From positions 133,242 through 197,241 of the forward strand of contig JACOZN010000010.1 in NCBI GenBank assembly GCA_016181305.1: 64,000 nt of DNA, given 5' to 3'. A model generated the notes under the pieces. It worked only from the letters and a program-made list of their open reading frames with translations. It had not been told where the DNA came from and did no database searches. This document shows, in pieces, positions 5,438 through 63,843 of the stretch (its first letter is position 1; each line of letters begins with the position of its first letter). Origin of the DNA: Candidatus Woesearchaeota archaeon (GTDB lineage: Archaea; Nanobdellota; Nanobdellia; Woesearchaeales; GW2011-AR4). Both the position numbers and the translations under genes were made by a program.

Positions 5438-5692
5438 TTATTGTTTTGGAGAATAAACTCTTTTTAGAATCATCTGGCTCGCTATTCCGAGAGAAACTCC
5501 AAGAGTTTCCAAAGCAAAGAAAATTATCATGCTGAAGGGCAGATTTGAAACGTAAGTGCTGAATCCAGTGGCATCTGAAACAACATTTCCAGTTGGCATT
5601 ATGCTTGCAGGACTTCCATTATCGCCATAAATAGGAAGCATGAAGTAAACCAATAAAGCAATTAAAGCTCCTATGTAAGCGCCTTCTTTCAT
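5438..5692 (-). CDS. small hydrophobic membrane protein
   Basis: 84-aa ORF with two predicted TM segments and no recognisable family. Confidence 0.4.
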   Translation of the reverse strand: MKEGAYIGALIALLVYFMLPIYGDNGSPASIMPTGNVVSDATGFSTYVSNLPFSMIIFFALETLGVSLGIASQMILKRVYSPKQ

Positions 5693-5744
5693 AATTTAAT
5701 TTGTTTGATATTTAGAATATAAAGGTTGCGGTTTGGGGTTATAT

Positions 5745-6608
5745 TTAACTTACAAGCTTTTTGAAATCTTCATCTTTCCATAAGAATTTGAAATCTTCAT
5801 CTTTTTTGGCGTCATCTTTATGTTTGCTATCAAGTTCTATTGCTTTTTTTAAATTAAGAAGCGCTTCTTCCTTTTTATTTTTTATTGAATAATAACAAGA
5901 TATATTAAACCAAACATTTGGATCTTTTGGGTCTAGTTCTATTGCCTTTTCAAATGCTTTTAATGCTTCCTCAGGTTTATTTAGTTTAAAAAGGATAACA
6001 CCTTTATTAACCCATAACGTATTATCTTTTGGGTCTAGTTCTATTGCCTTTTCAAATGCTTTTAATGATAATTCATAATTTCCTTTTTTGTAATAATCAA
6101 CACCACGAATAAAAAATCTGGCAGGGGCTTCTATGCCTAAGATTTCTAGTTCTTCCACTCGATGTTTAATTTGTCCTATATCTTCTTTAGATACTTTTTC
6201 AATTGATATATCCTTAATTTTTTTTATTGATTCATTTACCTCATTTTCTGCCCTATTTCTAATTTCTTGTATTTCTCTTAGATTTTTTTCTGCCTGTTTT
6301 CTTATTTTACTCCATTTACTATACTGAAAGAATCCCAATCCAATTGCTATTGTAACTAAAATAGCTATTAATGTGACTAACACCCCCATGCCAGTCACAA
6401 CTATATTTAGGGTTGTCAGCGACCTATCAAAATTTCTTTGTGATTCTGCCAATATACTTTCTGGGGATGCTATACCCTGATTTTGTTTATAATCAATCGG
6501 TTTATTTATAATAGCAGTTTTATTTATTGTAGTATTTTTTTGTGCGAATATTGTTTGAAGTAACAATACAAAAATAAATACAAAGATTATTAATTTAAGA
6601 TGTTTCAT
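5745..6608 (-). CDS. membrane-anchored TPR-repeat protein
   Basis: N-terminal signal/TM segment, a second TM segment and a coiled region. C-terminal TPR units contain the repeated AIELDPKD..W.NKG motif; an internal direct repeat of about 45 nt is visible in the DNA. Confidence 0.7.
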   Translation of the reverse strand: MKHLKLIIFVFIFVLLLQTIFAQKNTTINKTAIINKPIDYKQNQGIASPESILAESQRNFDRSLTTLNIVVTGMGVLVTLIAILVTIAIGLGFFQYSKWSKIRKQAEKNLREIQEIRNRAENEVNESIKKIKDISIEKVSKEDIGQIKHRVEELEILGIEAPARFFIRGVDYYKKGNYELSLKAFEKAIELDPKDNTLWVNKGVILFKLNKPEEALKAFEKAIELDPKDPNVWFNISCYYSIKNKKEEALLNLKKAIELDSKHKDDAKKDEDFKFLWKDEDFKKLVS

Positions 6609-8867: not shown

Positions 8868-9880
8868 GGGGCATCAGCCAGGTGCTTTATCAAAACCTTT
8901 TTTTCTTTGCTGTCCAGAATGTTGTAAGTCAGCAGTATTCCCATTGTCTTTTCCAGATCAAGCCTGTCTGACACCAGGTCAGCTGTGCATGTTACTGTTC
9001 TCTTGTTGCCAACAAGCTTTACAACGCCCTCAAAGCTGTTGTCCAGGCCCCCGCACTTGAGATTTGTCACAACAGGGTCAACAGGTATCTCGAGCAGCTC
9101 GACTCCCACATTGTTTTCAATCTCCCTCCTCATCCTTGGGTCGCGCGGGCATGCAGCGTCAAAGCCGCTTGAGGGTGTTCTCTTATCCCTGCTCCAGAAT
9201 ATGTCTACATTCCCGTTTAAAGAAATGTCAAAGCTGAAAGTAATCTTGTCCTTGCCTACAACGCTCTGCCTGAAATTTGACACCTGCACAGGCGCTGAAG
9301 AGCTGTATACTGTCCTTGTCGAGGTTGGTTTGCATATTGCATTGTCCCTCACGTTTATCATGTCCTTTAGCATGCACAGCTTTGTGTTGGCTTCTGTCCT
9401 GTAGTTGTAGCAGGCATCTGCCCTGAAAGTGAATTCTGTGTTGCCGCTGAATTTCCTCGGCACGAAGCTGTCGCCGCCTTTCGGGAATGTGACAAATGTA
9501 GTTGTTCCTTCCACTATATTGCCTTCTGCATCCCTTTTTCTGGATTCCAATGTGTCTTCCGGCTGGTTGTCGGACAAGTCAGAGAATGTCTTGCCAAAGT
9601 CGTTTGGGTCAAATCCTACTAGGTTGACCCTTATGGCATTGCTGTCAACTTTGAACTCGCCGTCATTCTTAAGCTTTACAATGACGTTAAACGCGAACGA
9701 AGAGTCGTCAGTTACTTCGGGGGGCGGGCTGTCTTTCTCAAAATCCATTGTAATGCCTGCTGTCCCGCCTATGAAAGGGGTCCTTGGCGCTCCTCCTGTT
9801 GCAGCGCCGCTTTTCTTGCAGGCAGAAACTAAAAGAATTAAACAGATAAGCAATGCAATGACATAATACTTCTTATTCAT
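8864..9880 (-). CDS. secreted lipoprotein-like protein, paralog 1 of 3
   Basis: Signal peptide plus a Cys lipobox-like site (LVSACKK). Shares G(T/S)EG..F....PPP, ACYNY..E..KLC and SAPVQV blocks with 9948..11180 and 11177..12244. Confidence 0.6.
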   Translation of the reverse strand: MNKKYYVIALLICLILLVSACKKSGAATGGAPRTPFIGGTAGITMDFEKDSPPPEVTDDSSFAFNVIVKLKNDGEFKVDSNAIRVNLVGFDPNDFGKTFSDLSDNQPEDTLESRKRDAEGNIVEGTTTFVTFPKGGDSFVPRKFSGNTEFTFRADACYNYRTEANTKLCMLKDMINVRDNAICKPTSTRTVYSSSAPVQVSNFRQSVVGKDKITFSFDISLNGNVDIFWSRDKRTPSSGFDAACPRDPRMRREIENNVGVELLEIPVDPVVTNLKCGGLDNSFEGVVKLVGNKRTVTCTADLVSDRLDLEKTMGILLTYNILDSKEKKVLIKHLADAP

Positions 9881-55249: not shown

Positions 55250-56017
55250 TTATTTTGAATAAGCCCTTTCAATGTCTTTTGCCAGCGCAGAACCAACCCA
55301 GACACCTACATCATATGCAGGATGAACTTCGCTGTCGTCAAGCAGCATGAATATTATCTCACTGCCGTCGACGATGCAGAACCTCGCCTTGTTGCCTGTG
55401 TTGATTACCTCGGCAAACTGGCTTATCTCTGCTGCTTTTTTTCTTGTTGACTGGCTGGGCTGCGTAAAAATCCTTATTTTTACATTTTTATTTCCCAAGC
55501 TTTCCAGAATTGACCTGAAATTTTCAACAAAGGCTGTGAATTCTGTGCTGGTGGCTGATATTAATATGCTCTTCTTTGCTTTCTCCAGCATCTGCCTTGT
55601 GTGGTTGTGTATATTATACCTTCCTATGAGCGCTCCGCTTGTATCTGAAGAAGATAAGTATGATTTACCTTTTGTGTGCAGGCTGTTAAGCTCGCCGATA
55701 ATCCTCGATTTTTTAATATTATCTATTTTTCCTGTCTCTCCGGCAGCGTTGCCCATGGTTTTTGATTTGATTGATTCTATTGCGGCTTGTGGTGGTGCGG
55801 CAACATACTTTAGTGGTTTTCCCCCCCTGGCAGCAACAAACCCCTTCTTTTCCAGAGACTCAAGAACGTCGTAGCTTCTGCTTCTTGGCACGTTGGCGAT
55901 GCTGGAAAGCTCGCCTGCAGTTGAAATTTCCCTGCTGAGCAGGGCTGCCCAAATCTTAACTTCGTAGCTGTTCAGGCCCAGGTTTCTCAGTTGTTTTTCC
56001 GCTTTTAAGCTTAACAT
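55250..56017 (-). CDS. TrmB-family transcriptional regulator (paralog of 20110..20928)
   Basis: YEVKIWAALLSREISTAGELSSIANVPRSRSYDVLESLEKKGFV, nearly identical to the other copy; the C-terminal domain is also homologous. The likely start is the internal ATG at 56017. Confidence 0.8.
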   Translation of the reverse strand: MLSLKAEKQLRNLGLNSYEVKIWAALLSREISTAGELSSIANVPRSRSYDVLESLEKKGFVAARGGKPLKYVAAPPQAAIESIKSKTMGNAAGETGKIDNIKKSRIIGELNSLHTKGKSYLSSSDTSGALIGRYNIHNHTRQMLEKAKKSILISATSTEFTAFVENFRSILESLGNKNVKIRIFTQPSQSTRKKAAEISQFAEVINTGNKARFCIVDGSEIIFMLLDDSEVHPAYDVGVWVGSALAKDIERAYSK

Positions 56018-56065
56018 TTTGTTTGGTATTATTATACACTTTAAAAACCTTTTTGTTTTTATCAT

Positions 56066-56287
56066 TAGTTAGTAATAAATATACACCCCCACCCCTACAC
56101 TTCTTATGGAAGTTATTTATTATTTTATCTTGTTTTTGTGTTTGTTTTGTTGTTTTCTATTTTTATTTTCTATATAGAAAAATAAAGAGTAAGTAATTTG
56201 AAAAAACACAAACACGTTTCCATACGAAATGATGGGGTAGCACTAATAAAGAAAATGTTTAAATACCTCCATTTCGTTTGGAAAATA
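56066..56287. other. candidate replication origin (oriC): three ORB-like repeats flanking an AT-rich tract, immediately upstream of orc1/cdc6
   Basis: ORB-like TTCCAnAcGAAaTG..GGGG elements at 56084–56114 (reverse), 56216–56237 (forward) and 56268–56284 (reverse). T/A-rich unwinding-type sequence spans 56120–56200. Confidence 0.55.
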
Positions 56288-57493
56288 ATGGTTGAAAGGG
56301 GGTTGGACGGGTTCTTTGAGGTGTTTCTAAGGAAAAAAAGCGCCTTTTTTGACAAAAAAGCGCTACAATCATCTTATATTCCCGAAACAATCCCACACAG
56401 GGAAGAACAAATAAAACAAATAGCTAATATCCTCGCCCCATCTTTAAAAGGTGACAAAACATCCAACATACTCCTCTATGGAAAAACCGGCACAGGAAAG
56501 ACGCTAACAATAAAATACACAACAAAAAAACTGATGGAGGTTGCCGAAAGGGAGAATATACCCTTAAAAATATTATATATTAACTGCAAGCTGAAGAGGA
56601 GCACGGACACAGAATACAGGCTCATTGCCCAGCTTGCCAGGGAGCTTGGCAAAGCAATACCGCCAACAGGGTTGCCGACAGAGGAGGTTTACAGGGCATT
56701 TTTCAAAGCGCTCGGCAGGCAAAAACAAAACCATATAATAATACTTGATGAAATAGACCAGCTCGTGAGCAAGGCAGGGGACAACGCCCTTTACAATCTC
56801 ACAAGAATAAATGAAGACACAGAATCTCAAATATCCTTAGTAGGAATATCCAACGACATCATGTTTGTTGACAACCTTGATCCCAGAGTCAGGTCATCCC
56901 TTTCTGAAGAGGAAATTGTTTTCCCGCCGTACAATGCAGTACAGATACAGGCAATTCTCCGCCAGAGGGCTGAGCAGGCATTCAACAAAGATGTTTTGGG
57001 CAACGGGGTTGTAGAGAAATGTGCGGCATACGCCGCAAGGGACCACGGAGATGCGAGGCGCGCCCTTGAGCTTCTAAGGGTTGCAGGAGAGATTGCCGGC
57101 AGGAAAAGCGCGGATAAAATAACAACAGAATTTGTGGACGAAGCGGAGCAAAAAATTGACAGGGACAGAATAATAGACGCTGTTGTGACGCAGCCAAAGC
57201 AGTACCATCTGGTGCTTTATTCAATAATCTCCCTCAGGCCCGGCAGGAAGGGAAATATATTCACCGGCGAGGTTTACGAGCTGTACAAGTCGCTGTGCGG
57301 CAAGACTGGCACAAGTGTGCTGACACAGCGCAGGATTTCGGACATAATATCAGAGTTCGATATGATAGGTATAGTGAACGCAAAGGTGATATCAAAAGGA
57401 AGATACGGAAGGACAAGGGAAATATCACTTGAAATCCCAGAAGAGATACTCCCAAGGGTCAAAGCCATCCTTGAAGACACGATAAGGGTTTAA
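56288..57493 (+). CDS. Orc1/Cdc6 replication initiator
   Basis: AAA+ motifs (GKTGTGKT, Walker B DEID) and a C-terminal winged helix. Start is uncertain: TTG 56198, ATG 56255 or ATG 56288. The ATG at 56288 leaves the ORB-like repeats non-coding. Confidence 0.85.
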   Translation: MVERGLDGFFEVFLRKKSAFFDKKALQSSYIPETIPHREEQIKQIANILAPSLKGDKTSNILLYGKTGTGKTLTIKYTTKKLMEVAERENIPLKILYINCKLKRSTDTEYRLIAQLARELGKAIPPTGLPTEEVYRAFFKALGRQKQNHIIILDEIDQLVSKAGDNALYNLTRINEDTESQISLVGISNDIMFVDNLDPRVRSSLSEEEIVFPPYNAVQIQAILRQRAEQAFNKDVLGNGVVEKCAAYAARDHGDARRALELLRVAGEIAGRKSADKITTEFVDEAEQKIDRDRIIDAVVTQPKQYHLVLYSIISLRPGRKGNIFTGEVYELYKSLCGKTGTSVLTQRRISDIISEFDMIGIVNAKVISKGRYGRTREISLEIPEEILPRVKAILEDTIRV

Positions 57494-58986: not shown

Positions 58987-61900
58987 ATGGCAAGCGAAGA
59001 AGAGTGCAAAAAGGAACTGGCAAAAAACATAGATTCTGCATATAAAGCCGCAAATCTTGCAAGGGCAAAAGGCTACGACCCTGAAACCACAGTCAACATA
59101 CCCCTTGCAAAAAACATGGCAGAAAGGGTTGAGGGGCTGGTTAGCGTTGCAGTGCCCCAAATCATGAACTGCGGCATACCGAAAAGAATCAAAGAGCTTG
59201 AATCATCCTACGGAAAACTGGACTGGAGAGTCGCTATGACAATCGCGCTGGAAACAGCGCAGCAAAAATTCTGCAGGCTTGAGACGCAAAAAGAGGCGAT
59301 AGAGGCAGGCATAAGAATCGGGCTGGCTTACCTGACTCTTGGTGTTGTTGCGTCGCCGCTTGAGGGATTTGTAGGACTGAAAATAAGAAAAAGGAAAGAC
59401 GGCGGGGAGTATTTTGCTTTGATGTACTCCGGGCCGATAAGAAGCGCAGGCGGCACAGCAGGGGCGCTAAGCGTCGTCATTGCAGATTACATAAGAAAGC
59501 AAACAGGATACAGCACTTATGATCCCTCGGAAAAGGAAGTCAGGAGAATGGTGTCTGAGCTTTATGATTACCATGAAAGGGTCACCAATCTGCAGTACCT
59601 GCCAAGCGAAAAGGAAATAAGGTTTCTTGTCAGCAACCTGCCTGTCCAGATAGACGGTGATGCGTCAGAAGACATAGAAGTCTCGAATTACAAGGACATC
59701 GACAGGATTGAGACAAACAGGATAAGGAGCGGGCCGTGCCTTGTTTTGGGGGAGTGCGTTGCGCAAAAAGCAGTCAAGGTATGGAGCCAGCTCAAGAAAT
59801 GGAGCAGTGAATTCGGGCTCGGGCACTGGGAATTTCTCCAGGAATTTGTGCACCTGCAGAAGGAGATGAAGACAAAGGAAAAGCCAGCAAAAAAAGGAAT
59901 TACCCCCGTCTATACATACATACAGGACCTTGTCGCAGGCAGGCCTGTGCTGACACATCCTCTTGCTTTTGGAGGTTTTAGATTAAGGTACGGAAGATGC
60001 AGGACCTCAGGATACTCAGCATCAGCAATCCATCCTGCGACAATGACAATCCTGAACAAGTACATTGCAATAGGCACCCAGCTCAAGGTTGAGAGGCCGG
60101 GCAAGGCTACGGCAGTTACAGCATGTGATTTTATAGAAGGGCCAATAATCAAGCTGAATGACGGCAGCGTGCTCAGAATTGATACAGAGCAAAAGGCAAA
60201 GCAGTTTGTGAATTCTGTCAAAGAGATACTTTTTCTCGGAGACATCATGTTCAATTACGGTGATTTTTTCAACAGGGCGCACCAGCTTGCGCCTGCAGGC
60301 TATTGCGAGGAGTGGTGGTCGCTTGAGGCTGAAAAGGCTGTTGTGAACCTGTTCGGCTCTTTGGATTATTACAGGGCTTCGCAGCTTTCAGGGATAGCTC
60401 AGGAGCATATTGAACAGGTCATTGGAGATTATTTTTCTGTGAAGCCCGATGCAAAAACCGCAATTGCAATAAGCAAAGCATTTTCAATCCCGCTGCATCC
60501 CATGTTCACGTACCATTGGAGGGCTGTTTCAAGGGAGGAATTCCTCGAAATGCTGAAATGGCTCTTGTCTGCAAAGGCAGAGTTTGACGGGAGCGGCATA
60601 ATCAAGCTTATACTGCCAAAAAATGAAGCCGGCAAGAGGGTGTTGGAGCTTGTTGGAATTCCACACCTTTATGTGAACAACGAACTTACAATCATAGAAA
60701 AAGACGACGCAGCAGTACTGCAGGCTGTGCTGAAGCTTAGTGAAAAGAATTTTTATGAGCAGTACAAAAACACCCAGATAGAGGATGTTCTCGACCTTAT
60801 AAACAGTTTATCAGAGATAAAGCTGAGGGACAAGTCAGGCACATTCATAGGGGCCAGGATGGGCAGGCCTGAAAAGGCAAAGGTCAGGAAGCTTGACGGC
60901 GACCCCCACACATTGTTTCCTGTAGGCAAGGAAGGCGGCAAGATGCGCTCGTTCCAGAGCGCAATGGAGCACGGCTTTGTTGACTCTGATTTTCCTGTAT
61001 ATTTCTGCAAAAACTGCAGCAGGGAAACTATTTTCAGCGTGTGCGGGCAATGCGACTCAAAGACAGCAGGATATTGCGGCGTTTGCGGCAAGCTTAAAGA
61101 TGATTGCAATCATACAGGCACGATACAGCACAAGCAGCAGAGAATAGACATCAGGCATTATTTTGGAGAGGTGCTCAGGAAGCTCGGCATGCAGCAGTAC
61201 CCAGACCTGATAAAAGGGGTGAGGGGCACCTCAAGCAAAAACCACATTCCTGAACATTTCGCAAAGGGCATTCTAAGGGCCAAGCACGACATTTCCGTAA
61301 ACAAGGACGGCACAACAAGATATGACATGACCCAGCTGCCGATAACGCATTTCAAGCCGGGCGAAATAGGGACATCTGTAGAGGAGCTGAAGGAGCTTGG
61401 CTATGGGAAGGACGTGAACGGGATTGAACTGGCAAATGCGGAGCAGGTGCTTGAATTAAAGTTTCAGGACATCATACTGCCGAAATGCGAGGATGCCCCT
61501 GAGCTTGGCGCAGACAAGATTCTGTACAAAGTAAGCCTGTTTATAGACGAGCTTTTAACTTCATTGTACGGCCAGGAAAAATTTTACAGGCTTAAATCTG
61601 AAAAAGACCTGACAGGGCAGCTTGTCGTGGCCTTGGCGCCGCATACATCGGCAGGCATTGTAGGAAGAATAATAGGGTTTTCAAGGACGCAGGGGTTTTA
61701 CGCGCACCCATTGTTCCATGCAGCCACAAGAAGAGATTGTGACGGGGATGAGGCGTCTGTAACACTTTTGATGGATGCCCTGCTGAATTTCTCAAGGGAA
61801 TTTCTTCCTGACTCAAGAGGCTCCACACAGGACGCTCCATTAGTCCTGACTTCAATACTCGTTCCGACAGAGGTTGACGACATGGCGTTTGACATGGATG

Positions 61901-62484
61901 TTGCAAAGAGGTACCCGGTTGAGTTTTACGAGGCAGCCCAAAACTATGAAATGCCGTGGAATGTGAAGGTGGACAGGCTTGCAGGGCTGCTGCATTCCGA
62001 AAAAACAGGAGGCATATTTTATACCCATCCTGTGTCAAGCATCAACATGGGCGTCAGGTGCTCATCCTATAAAACGATCCCCTCAATGGAGGACAAGCTG
62101 AAAGGGCAGATGGAACTGGCTGACAAGATAAGGGCTGTTGATGCAGCTGATGTAGCAAGATTAGTGATAGAGAAGCATTTGCTAAGGGACATCAAGGGAA
62201 ACCTAAGGAAGTTCTCGCAGCAGCAGTTCAGGTGCAGCAAGTGCACTGAAAAATACAGAAGGCCGCCTTTGACCGGAAAATGCCTTGCGTGCGGAGGAAG
62301 GCTCATATTCACAGTCACGGAAGGCGCCATAGTCAAGTACTTAGAGCCGGCAATCTCTTTGTCTGAAAAATACAACCTGCCTCCTTACCTGAAACAAGTT
62401 TTATTATTGACAAAAGACAGGGTTGAAGGAGTTTTCGGAAGGGAAAAAGACAAGCAGGAAGGCCTAGGGAGATGGTTTGGGTAA
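58987..62484 (+). CDS. DNA polymerase II (PolD) large subunit DP2
   Basis: 1165 aa with no intein. Cys clusters CKNCS...CGQCD...CGVCG and CSKCT...CLACGG. Confidence 0.9.
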   Translation: MASEEECKKELAKNIDSAYKAANLARAKGYDPETTVNIPLAKNMAERVEGLVSVAVPQIMNCGIPKRIKELESSYGKLDWRVAMTIALETAQQKFCRLETQKEAIEAGIRIGLAYLTLGVVASPLEGFVGLKIRKRKDGGEYFALMYSGPIRSAGGTAGALSVVIADYIRKQTGYSTYDPSEKEVRRMVSELYDYHERVTNLQYLPSEKEIRFLVSNLPVQIDGDASEDIEVSNYKDIDRIETNRIRSGPCLVLGECVAQKAVKVWSQLKKWSSEFGLGHWEFLQEFVHLQKEMKTKEKPAKKGITPVYTYIQDLVAGRPVLTHPLAFGGFRLRYGRCRTSGYSASAIHPATMTILNKYIAIGTQLKVERPGKATAVTACDFIEGPIIKLNDGSVLRIDTEQKAKQFVNSVKEILFLGDIMFNYGDFFNRAHQLAPAGYCEEWWSLEAEKAVVNLFGSLDYYRASQLSGIAQEHIEQVIGDYFSVKPDAKTAIAISKAFSIPLHPMFTYHWRAVSREEFLEMLKWLLSAKAEFDGSGIIKLILPKNEAGKRVLELVGIPHLYVNNELTIIEKDDAAVLQAVLKLSEKNFYEQYKNTQIEDVLDLINSLSEIKLRDKSGTFIGARMGRPEKAKVRKLDGDPHTLFPVGKEGGKMRSFQSAMEHGFVDSDFPVYFCKNCSRETIFSVCGQCDSKTAGYCGVCGKLKDDCNHTGTIQHKQQRIDIRHYFGEVLRKLGMQQYPDLIKGVRGTSSKNHIPEHFAKGILRAKHDISVNKDGTTRYDMTQLPITHFKPGEIGTSVEELKELGYGKDVNGIELANAEQVLELKFQDIILPKCEDAPELGADKILYKVSLFIDELLTSLYGQEKFYRLKSEKDLTGQLVVALAPHTSAGIVGRIIGFSRTQGFYAHPLFHAATRRDCDGDEASVTLLMDALLNFSREFLPDSRGSTQDAPLVLTSILVPTEVDDMAFDMDVAKRYPVEFYEAAQNYEMPWNVKVDRLAGLLHSEKTGGIFYTHPVSSINMGVRCSSYKTIPSMEDKLKGQMELADKIRAVDAADVARLVIEKHLLRDIKGNLRKFSQQQFRCSKCTEKYRRPPLTGKCLACGGRLIFTVTEGAIVKYLEPAISLSEKYNLPPYLKQVLLLTKDRVEGVFGREKDKQEGLGRWFG

Positions 62485-62489
62485 GTTAA

Positions 62490-63062
62490 TTAATCATTTT
62501 GAATTCTAAGCCAATCCTTAATTAGTATCTTAAATCTCAATATCTCATCGTCGCTTAAATCGCAACTATGGGCAATTACATTTCTAATTTTATTTAATGG
62601 AGACAAAACTTCTTGTACAGATTTTTGACTTCTGAGTATGTTTGAGAAATCTGACCAATTTGCAGAGAAGATATCTATTAATTCACCAAAGTTAGTGTAA
62701 TCTAAAGGATCTTCTGATCTTATTGTCATAGCACTCTCACGTTCTTTTTTTTGTATATCAGATACATTATTTTTAATACTTGAAGGAATTTTAGTGTCCC
62801 ACCAATTCTCACCATATTTTTCTGCAAGAATATCTCTGATTAATTTTCTGACACTATTCTCTAAACTAAAATACAGAACGTAAAAATCAGCCATTTTTTT
62901 CGCTTTTTTTAGTATGTCATATTCAAAAAGCTCTGTGTCAACCAACTCACCCTTTTTTAGAGTTTTGATGTGTCCCATATCTATTCCATCTCTTTCTAAT
63001 TTCTCCAATTCTTTTTCAAGGAGAAGATTTTTCATACCAAATAACATTAGCTTTTCTTCCAT
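62490..63062 (-). CDS. HEPN-domain protein (Swt1/Abi-like), predicted RNase
   Basis: Rx4H motif in PLNKIRNVIAHS near the C-terminal helix. AT-rich codon usage. Confidence 0.55.
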   Translation of the reverse strand: MEEKLMLFGMKNLLLEKELEKLERDGIDMGHIKTLKKGELVDTELFEYDILKKAKKMADFYVLYFSLENSVRKLIRDILAEKYGENWWDTKIPSSIKNNVSDIQKKERESAMTIRSEDPLDYTNFGELIDIFSANWSDFSNILRSQKSVQEVLSPLNKIRNVIAHSCDLSDDEILRFKILIKDWLRIQND

Positions 63063-63075
63063 TGTTATGTTCTCC

Positions 63076-63702
63076 TTATTTGAGAAGGTTTTCTTTTAGA
63101 GCTTTGAAGATTGAATTAAATACTTCTACATCATTGGTTGCAGGCAAATTAAGATTTATAGTGTACGATATTCCTAGTTTGGTTGGCATTGTTATTTGTG
63201 GTGCTTCTCCTGTAACTGTAGTTTCTGTTTGTTCTTCATTTGAAGTAGATTGAATTTCTCCATCAAAATCTGCCAACTTACATAATTCTAAAAAAGTGGC
63301 AGCAACTTTTGGAATTGTTTTATCTTCTTTTGAAGCACCCAGAACAGAACAGAGCTTTGAGATAATCTCATCTTTTTTTAGTTTATGAGCATATGTATGT
63401 GCAGTGTAAAGTTTGTGATATGCACTCTTAATCTGTTGCGCCATAATTGCTTTGGATTTGGAATCATCTCTGTATTCGGAATAAGCTTTTGTTGGAACAT
63501 TAGCTTGGTCAATAAATACAATTCTTTTTAAGAACGGAATCATAGGGCGATAGCTACTTGATTTTAAACTCAACACAGTAGATAAAAAATCCTGTGTAAA
63601 TTTTGGTGGGACGCTTGCTTCTTTTATTTTTGAAAACAATTCTTTTAATTGCCCATAGGCATCTACATAAGGTGGATACTCAACCATTTTACTTACCCCC
63701 AT
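63076..63702 (-). CDS. hypothetical protein, upstream partner of the HEPN gene
   Basis: 208 aa with no recognised motif. 13-bp gap to the HEPN gene. AT-rich. Confidence 0.45.
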   Translation of the reverse strand: MGVSKMVEYPPYVDAYGQLKELFSKIKEASVPPKFTQDFLSTVLSLKSSSYRPMIPFLKRIVFIDQANVPTKAYSEYRDDSKSKAIMAQQIKSAYHKLYTAHTYAHKLKKDEIISKLCSVLGASKEDKTIPKVAATFLELCKLADFDGEIQSTSNEEQTETTVTGEAPQITMPTKLGISYTINLNLPATNDVEVFNSIFKALKENLLK

Positions 63703-63843
63703 CTATTATATTGGATAGTTAGTTGGATATATATTTAAATTTATTGGATATTTGCTTTTAGGACTGGCTTTTTGTAATCGGTGGCACCCAAAACTGATTG
63801 CATTTAACAACCATTAAACTCGTTTTAATAGAAAACTCAAATA

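Follow-up and report, generated by a model that had tools for sequence, protein, structure and literature searches.

Cas13, Csm6 and many toxin–antitoxin and abortive-infection systems use HEPN ribonucleases (RNases) as their effectors, and the question of interest is how each of them is restrained and released. In CapRel-type fused toxin–antitoxin proteins, a regulatory domain both restrains the effector and senses infection. The present analysis concerns a two-gene cassette of a Woesearchaeota genome, in which a DUF5343 gene (gene A) is followed by a HEPN gene (gene B) in the gap between polD and the aIF2β gene; it lies in a 64,000-nucleotide stretch of contig JACOZN010000010.1, referred to as the window. 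Its closest described counterpart is PDC-M34 (cassette CAS_00130, listed as 'assign as candidate'), which belongs to a set of 145 systems predicted via 'guilt by embedding' and explicitly untested for anti-phage activity; PDC-M34 was detected by its embedding within BREX, DISARM, type I restriction–modification or Hma loci (Payne et al., bioRxiv 10.1101/2024.01.29.577857).

Another relative in design is HEPN-MNT (HepT-MntA, MNT standing for minimal nucleotidyltransferase), likewise a two-gene operon with the partner gene first and a HEPN RNase toxin carrying Rx4-6H, and likewise widespread in archaea and bacteria. The partner in the window, however, is DUF5343 and not a minimal nucleotidyltransferase: neither Pfam nor NCBIfam detects any nucleotidyltransferase family in gene A. 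The HEPN domain of gene B belongs to the Abi2/Swt1 clade, distinct from the nucleotidyltransferase-associated clade in the classification of the 2013 HEPN survey, which covers the Abi2/Swt1 clade but not the DUF5343 partner (PMC3710099). Given this clade and this partner, neutralisation by AMPylation is not expected. The abortive-infection proteins of the same clade as gene B (Abi2/AbiD/AbiF and other Swt1-clade members) are mostly single proteins or fusions with ATPase or restriction–modification components (PMC3710099), whereas the window has a short HEPN protein with a separate DUF5343 partner. The cassette resembles CapRel-type proteins and PD-T4-6 kinases in concept, and the DUF5343 N-terminal domain is found elsewhere fused to a PD-T4-6-like kinase; there is no sequence relationship with CapRel, and the effector in the window is a separate HEPN protein, presumably recruited in trans by the C-terminal tail of the gene A protein.

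The two cassette proteins fit the PDC-M34A and PDC-M34B models along practically their full length, and their genes have the order and orientation of PDC-M34. The gene A protein is recognised by Pfam as DUF5343 (PF17278; E 4e-48, 163.6 bits against a cut-off of 27, residues 11–149) and by PADLOC as PDC-M34A (PDLC04589; E 2.5e-53, residues 9–206 on profile positions 4–207 of 208). The gene B protein matches HEPN_Swt1 in Pfam (PF18731; E 2e-14, 54.2 bits against a cut-off of 27.5, residues 66–186) and PDC-M34B in PADLOC (PDLC04592; E 2.9e-47, residues 1–186 on profile positions 1–188 of 192). Since both fit over their full length, the pairing of A with B is not new; the instance in the window differs from PDC-M34 only by its DPANN host and its solitary position among replication genes. 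An initial annotation of this DNA had proposed a candidate defence module made of a HEPN protein and a novel partner that it did not recognise. Its core idea holds, and the defence assignment agrees with the PADLOC prediction, but the novelty has to be given up: the partner is a Pfam family, DUF5343 rather than a housekeeping one, and the pair is already catalogued. We lean towards reading the cassette as a horizontally acquired PDC-M34 module of two genes that would work as a toxin–antitoxin-like, abortive-infection RNase system, a reading that we hold with somewhat more confidence than doubt.

The association of the two genes is strict. Relatives of DUF5343 occur in 237 of 185,579 species genomes (one genome scanned per species), patchily across unrelated phyla, and 80 loci were fetched from these positive genomes; with metagenomes and viral contigs the comparison comprises about 95 loci in at least 15 phyla of archaea and bacteria. 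Among the archaeal hosts are Bathyarchaeia, Methanosarcinales, Thermoplasmata and Nitrososphaerota, and among the bacterial ones Acidobacteriota, Bacteroidota, Nitrospirota, Actinomycetota, Patescibacteria, Planctomycetota and Pseudomonadota. The HEPN gene stands immediately 3' of the DUF5343 gene, on the same strand, in 79 of the 80 genome loci, and the sole exception is a contig that terminates 30 nt past gene A. Gene B also follows gene A in all metagenome, viral and looked-up loci of sufficient sequence. The conserved co-occurrence that a two-gene module calls for is therefore found, with an A-then-B order kept in every testable locus. The two proteins moreover diverge together, their identities to the window proteins being correlated with r = 0.92, and gene B is more conserved than gene A in 66 of 83 pairs. 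No conserved third gene was seen near the pair among the neighbourhoods compared.

In the window the two open reading frames (ORFs), 63076..63702 for gene A (208 amino acids, aa) and 62490..63062 for gene B (190 aa), are co-oriented on the minus strand and separated by 13 nt, exactly as first described. Gene B has an AAGGAG ribosome-binding site that overlaps the gene A stop codon; the two genes are therefore evidently co-transcribed, and their translation is probably coupled. In type II toxin–antitoxin systems, a pair of small neighbouring genes is likewise transcribed together and passed on as one unit.

The catalytic motif of the gene B protein is intact. R160 and H165 are invariant and N161 is nearly so among 26 relatives (61–84% identity), in which E68, N69, S70 and R72 of the first long helix are conserved as well. 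The motif falls inside the HEPN_Swt1 match and not outside the predicted HEPN domain; the protein had been said to end with Rx4H, but 25 residues come after it. In the AlphaFold2 model, which is all-helical with a predicted local distance difference test score (pLDDT) of 81.5, it sits at the end of helix 146–166. The protein also has weak matches to Abi_2 (residues 121–169), to Csm6 and to a PHROG family described as 'abortive infection resistance protein', and it is acidic (pI ~5.2). The identification of a HEPN protein thus stands, and gene B most likely encodes a Swt1-clade HEPN endoribonuclease, to which we would ascribe, from its family and motif, RNase activity and toxicity.

The gene A protein is built of three parts (208-aa numbering): an N-domain at about 6–149, a disordered linker rich in Pro, Glu and Lys at 150–175, and a tail at 176–208. 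Its AlphaFold2 model shows a helical N-domain with pLDDT above 90, a linker below 40 (150–181 in the model) and then a C-terminal helix. A DUF5343 profile search of 1.84 billion representatives yielded 2,181 members, including 1,235 with E ≤ 1e-10; nearly all have a length of 200–220 aa and are matched from end to end. Among 96 representatives (28–55% identity), the most conserved segment of the family is the tail, LxYTIxLNLPxTxDxxVYxAIFKSLKExLL, and the PY motif at the N-terminus is likewise conserved. Residues 18–78 are always basic, with a pI of 9.1–10.6. In one protein of the family (P0373), the tail is replaced by a PD-T4-6-like Ser/Thr kinase (PD-T4-6 defence family, E 8e-43). We read the N-domain as a modular unit of regulation or sensing, which the tail would connect to a separate effector. 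The kinase fusion gene (locus L107, 4001–5374) lies 2.6 kb downstream of a canonical DUF5343–HEPN pair and adjoins a gene for a TIR-domain protein and an IS110 transposase, in what resembles a small defence island.

In the mechanism that we propose, the gene B protein would probably dimerise as other HEPN enzymes do, with a composite R-N-x3-H active site. The gene A protein, translated first off the shared transcript, would restrain it: the near-invariant tail, a strand plus a helix carried on the flexible linker, would dock onto B, and the basic N-terminal domain would be the sensing or nucleic-acid-binding part. A trigger such as phage infection, or the loss or turnover of A, would then free B and lead to RNA cleavage and cell arrest. 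The operon has a promoter of its own, whose TATA box fits the archaeal consensus, and in this subclade the ATCCAA boxes around it may serve as a repressor site. More speculatively, DUF5343 could represent an unrecognised kind of modular infection sensor or regulator with a new fold, whose docking peptide controls a HEPN protein in trans and which is wired to a defence kinase elsewhere; this proposal we put forward tentatively, as possible rather than probable.

The foreign origin of the cassette, suggested at the outset by its AT-richness, is borne out by low G+C content (GC), an empty site in a relative and a different toxin–antitoxin cargo in a sister lineage. GC is 0.30 in gene B, 0.33 in gene A and 0.28 in the upstream spacer, against 0.48 in polD and 0.47 in the aIF2β fragment; across loci it is lower in the cassette than in the flanks in 72 of 74 cases, with a median difference of 7 points. 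Nucleotide homology between cassettes ends at the HEPN stop codon (62488–62500) and reaches, in some loci, ~70–120 nt 5' of gene A. In a related Woesearchaeon (L105/L106), whose polD is 76% identical, the site is empty, polD and aIF2β being adjacent with a 150-nt spacer. In the sister lineage (L101–L104), with a polD 96% identical in protein and 93.5% in nucleotide sequence to that of the window, a PIN_3 toxin and a MazE-type antitoxin stand next to polD in the same gap, which also holds two further genes, all of this cargo (L101 7510–9345, also in L102–L104) having a GC of 0.27–0.36. This VapBC-like MazE–PIN pair shares with the cassette its position and orientation by the polD stop, its low GC and a gene order in which a small regulator comes before an RNase toxin, but the protein families are unrelated (an antitoxin of AbrB/MazE fold and a PIN nuclease). 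Because the site is empty in one relative and occupied by the MazE–PIN pair in another lineage, the polD–aIF2β gap is, as far as sequence comparison can tell, a hotspot for cargo of toxin–antitoxin type. The two further genes of the sister lineage are of low GC, encode 113 and 209 aa and have no Pfam or PADLOC match; the promoter region of the 209-aa gene is partly homologous to that of the window.

Upstream of the cassette lies a conserved block, gttgttaaatGCAATCAGttttggg, which the window has in common with the sister lineage despite the different cargo there (L101 ~9410–9440) and which also occurs in DUF5343–HEPN cassettes of unrelated hosts (L091 ~730–760, L052 ~5885–5915). It could represent the boundary of the cassette or an att-like core, but also a promoter-distal element or what remains of an older insertion, and the GCAATCAG block in the polD–aIF2β gap may mark a candidate recombination site. 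In no locus did the ~22-nt block recur at the opposite end of the cassette, and a search for terminal repeats or a target-site duplication around the insert returned only chance-level repeats.

The closest relative of gene A, 90% identical, resides in a bacterial metagenome-assembled genome (L052), between flanks that encode a twin-arginine translocation (TAT)-signal protein and insertion sequence (IS) elements; this context indicates a recent transfer of the cassette between archaeon and bacterium. An IS4-like DDE transposase gene splits gene A in that genome and leaves the HEPN gene intact, and an ISL3 transposase gene lies just downstream (L052 6348–7730, 9194–10459). Such a history is difficult to reconcile with a housekeeping RNA-processing enzyme and its accessory subunit. 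Some eukaryotic HEPN proteins, such as Las1 and Swt1, do act in core RNA processing or RNA surveillance (PMC3710099), but the patchy distribution (237 of 185,579 species genomes), the foreign GC, the empty site in a close relative, the cases of IS disruption and pseudogenisation and the evident interdomain transfer make that role highly improbable for the pair.

Several observations nevertheless weigh against the toxin–antitoxin-like, abortive-infection reading that we prefer. Full-text literature searches on DUF5343, PDC-M34 and HEPN_Swt1 returned no paper characterising the pair. The best Foldseek match of the gene B model in the PDB, a Csm6 HEPN domain, is not significant (E 0.16, template-modelling score 0.35). 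For gene A, Foldseek against the PDB and BFVD gave no structural relative at E <0.7, and a PDB profile search gave no match. The secondary structure of DUF5343, three helices and a hairpin, resembles a winged helix; no weak Pfam helix-turn-helix (HTH) match was found in the 96 family members, however, and hhalign against the TrmB winged helix returned a probability of 0.5%, so that after these searches the winged-helix idea is left with the helix-helix-helix-hairpin pattern and the basic charge. No sequence or structure test run supported DNA binding by DUF5343, no HTH or ribbon-helix-helix fold being detectable. Many neighbours of the pair are housekeeping genes. The pair is also absent from 72,556 plasmids (PLSDB) and 50,697 phage genomes (INPHARED) and rare on viral contigs, with only 5 distant loci in IMG/VR; on these collections the idea of plasmid or phage carriage was rejected.

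These neighbourhoods bear on the view that the pair is a purely selfish addiction module, of toxin–antitoxin type and with no role in virus defence. Its solitary position in the window, among replication and translation genes and with no other defence gene nearby, would suit such a module, as would the frequency of housekeeping neighbours in other genomes and the MazE–PIN pair in the same slot of the sister lineage. The family was found, however, through its embedding in BREX, DISARM, type I restriction–modification or Hma loci. Genes of defence systems turn up repeatedly close to the pair (methyltransferases of restriction–modification types I and II, mad2/3, DarG, DRT, AriA, LmuB and several PDC-S families), next to integrases and ordinary housekeeping genes; the kinase-fusion paralogue lies in an island with a TIR-domain protein; and the absence from the searched plasmids is a further point against addiction. 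We consider a selfish module without defence function unlikely.

Absence from those plasmids, where addiction modules are common, agrees with another arrangement as well, in which the gene A protein is a sensor or activator: B would be inactive alone and become active once A, through its N-domain, has detected a ligand derived from a phage, with no classical antitoxin involved. The direct fusion of the N-domain to an effector kinase in place of the tail, a sensor–effector layout that is common in single-chain defence proteins, speaks for it too, and so does L052, which tolerates an insertion in gene A with gene B intact. This last case is not decisive, because the insertion would also separate gene B from its promoter. 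On the other side, the regulator-first order, the translational coupling and the flexible linker fit antitoxin–toxin operons, and the sister lineage has a classical MazE–PIN pair in the same slot; activation by A strikes us as improbable. In L093 it is gene B that is fragmented and gene A that is intact. The HEPN gene of that locus (5620–6190) is in three or four frame-shifted pieces, which would be either a decaying toxin gene or long-read indel errors. As to the direction of regulation, there is one case each way, and the two are not informative because L052 and L093 are long-read or metagenome assemblies.

The initial annotation had also suggested autoregulation, in that three TTGGATA repeats around a TATA-like element, and a fourth copy just inside the ORF, were taken for a likely operator. 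The three repeats exist, at 63711, 63723 and 63744 on the plus strand (the second had been placed at 63724). On the sense strand the spacer thus runs TATCCAA-N14-TATCCAA-N5-TATCCAA, and the N14 contains the TATA box TTTAAATA, which is an exact match to the archaeal consensus, ~45–50 nt 5' of the gene A start codon. The TATA core 'atttaaRta' is kept in L052, L085, L087 and L091, and no σ70-type promoter is predicted in the spacer. Judged by established archaeal promoter architecture, a repressor bound to the boxes would be placed to obstruct TBP/TFB or RNA polymerase. The supposed fourth copy, GTGGATA at 63672–63678, falls on the Tyr9-Pro10 codons of the invariant YPPY motif, whose third positions vary in relatives; coding constraint accounts for it, and it is not a box.

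The repeat by itself is weak evidence. TTGGATA is not over-represented in the whole window, with 11 copies against 10.6 expected; some 7-mer is tripled in 0.8% of dinucleotide shuffles of the 156-nt spacer and in 2.4% of equal-sized windows of the 64 kb. The boxes gain their credibility from conservation in relatives. At least two of them are present only in the window, L091, L052/L092, L085 and L087, and in these five loci the ATCCAA cores of the boxes flanking the TATA box are invariant at 12 of 12 positions with the 21-nt spacing kept, against 9 of 36 other promoter positions, six of these in the TATA core; the statistic is partly circular, since the loci were picked for an alignable promoter.

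This circularity counts against an operator, as does the absence of boxes in L004, L084, L093 and L094, where gene A is 76–80% identical and residues 47–75, the putative DNA-reading segment, are nearly unchanged. A family-wide operator was also sought by k-mer enrichment over 95 upstream regions, and none emerged. The boxes could instead be promoter architecture, the sites of another factor or the shared ancestry of a shallow clade, and we judge the case for and against this view to be evenly balanced. It draws on the absence of the boxes despite near-identical residues 47–75, on the lack of a detected DNA-binding fold in A, on the frequency of tripled 7-mers and on the Tyr-Pro codons under the fourth copy. 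It is opposed by the invariance of both cores while the spacers diverge, with the 21-nt spacing around the TATA box preserved, and by the consistently basic residues 18–78 of A. The boxes also move with the cassette between archaeon and bacterium, and a cassette-encoded binding factor is therefore favoured. What is left of the autoregulatory proposal is a set of boxes that bracket the TATA box and are kept in five loci, a weak indication beside their absence in equally close relatives and family-wide; that they are the operator of the gene A protein is possible, though the balance is at best even and tilts somewhat towards doubt.

The spacer was examined for an RNA antitoxin or structured RNA as well, and gave no Rfam match and a fold z of 0.47 relative to shuffles; the repeats are 7-nt boxes inside the promoter and not those of a type III toxin–antitoxin system. 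In an acidobacterial subclade (L042, L048, L061), gene A is preceded at ~100 nt by an element of its own, a palindrome TGGAAAT ... GTTTCCA with ATTGTTG. This element is unrelated to the ATCCAA boxes, so promoter regions differ between subclades.

The mechanical ORF of gene A runs to 63702, but its true start is most likely 63687, giving 203 aa, because nearly all homologues begin at the second Met, with MV(E/D/N)YPPY (MVEYPPY in the window), and a GGGGGT Shine-Dalgarno-like site precedes this codon. GGAGG or GGGGG is found at the equivalent position upstream of gene A in most related loci, and NCBI likewise annotates the identical protein with 203 aa. The features are located in Table 1.

Table 1 Positions of the cassette and its elements in the window (BRE, TFB-recognition element).
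Feature	Position	Strand	Basis
Approximate foreign insert, from the polD stop (62484) to the aIF2β 3' flank	62485..63785	.	GC contrast, end of homology, empty site, alternative cargo
Gene B: Swt1-type HEPN / PDC-M34B, 190 aa, predicted RNase effector (toxin)	62490..63062	-	Pfam, PADLOC, AlphaFold2 model
Codons of the Rx4H (R-N-x3-H) HEPN motif, R160-N-V-I-A-H165	62568..62585	-	Conservation in 26 relatives
Intergenic gap, 13 nt	63063..63075	-	Sequence; same-strand short gap in all testable related loci
Gene A: DUF5343 / PDC-M34A, 203 aa from the second Met	63076..63687	-	Pfam, PADLOC, alignments, AlphaFold2 model
GGGGGT Shine-Dalgarno-like site, 7 nt 5' of the likely start codon 63687	63695..63700	-	Sequence
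Box e: TATCCAA close to where transcription should start	63711..63717	-	Conserved in L091 only, as TATCCAG
Box d: TATCCAA directly 3' of the TATA box, beginning 21 nt from the beginning of box c	63723..63729	-	Sequence and promoter alignment
TATA box TTTAAATA, exact match to the archaeal TTTAWATA consensus	63732..63739	-	Sequence
Box c: TATCCAA directly 5' of the TATA box (BRE position)	63744..63750	-	Sequence and promoter alignment
Conserved upstream block gttgttaaatGCAATCAGttttggg, ~22 nt	63786..63806	-	Nucleotide comparison between loci

Elsewhere in the window, a very AT-rich spacer (56066–56197, GC ~0.30) separates a divergent TrmB-like regulator gene (55250–56065, minus strand) from orc1/cdc6 (56198–57493, plus strand), and is probably a replication origin region. 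Both polD subunits follow orc1/cdc6. The cassette therefore lies inside a core replication gene cluster. Several Woesearchaeota polD large subunits are ~1,620 aa long and contain intein/homing-endonuclease domains (PF14528, PF14890); the polD of the window (58987–62484, 1,165 aa) is without intein domains.

Taken singly, this locus is one more copy of a catalogued candidate and not surprising; it is the family that deserves testing. With ~2,200 clusters at 50% identity and 237 species-level genomes in both prokaryotic domains, the family is wide, and it offers testable handles: the invariant tail, which is likely the part that docks the effector, the basic N-domain, likely the sensor, the natural kinase fusion as a case of N-domain modularity, and a compact native promoter with candidate operator boxes. 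The locus itself bears witness to a recent passage between archaeon and bacterium, and to a hotspot of insertion in the reduced genome of a DPANN archaeon. If DUF5343 were indeed a modular infection sensor that controls its HEPN partner through a docking peptide, it would amount to a new architecture for toxin–antitoxin or abortive-infection systems, one that passes freely between the two prokaryotic domains and whose insertion point in Woesearchaeota is a hotspot of cassette exchange, with a common ~22-nt boundary sequence as its mark.

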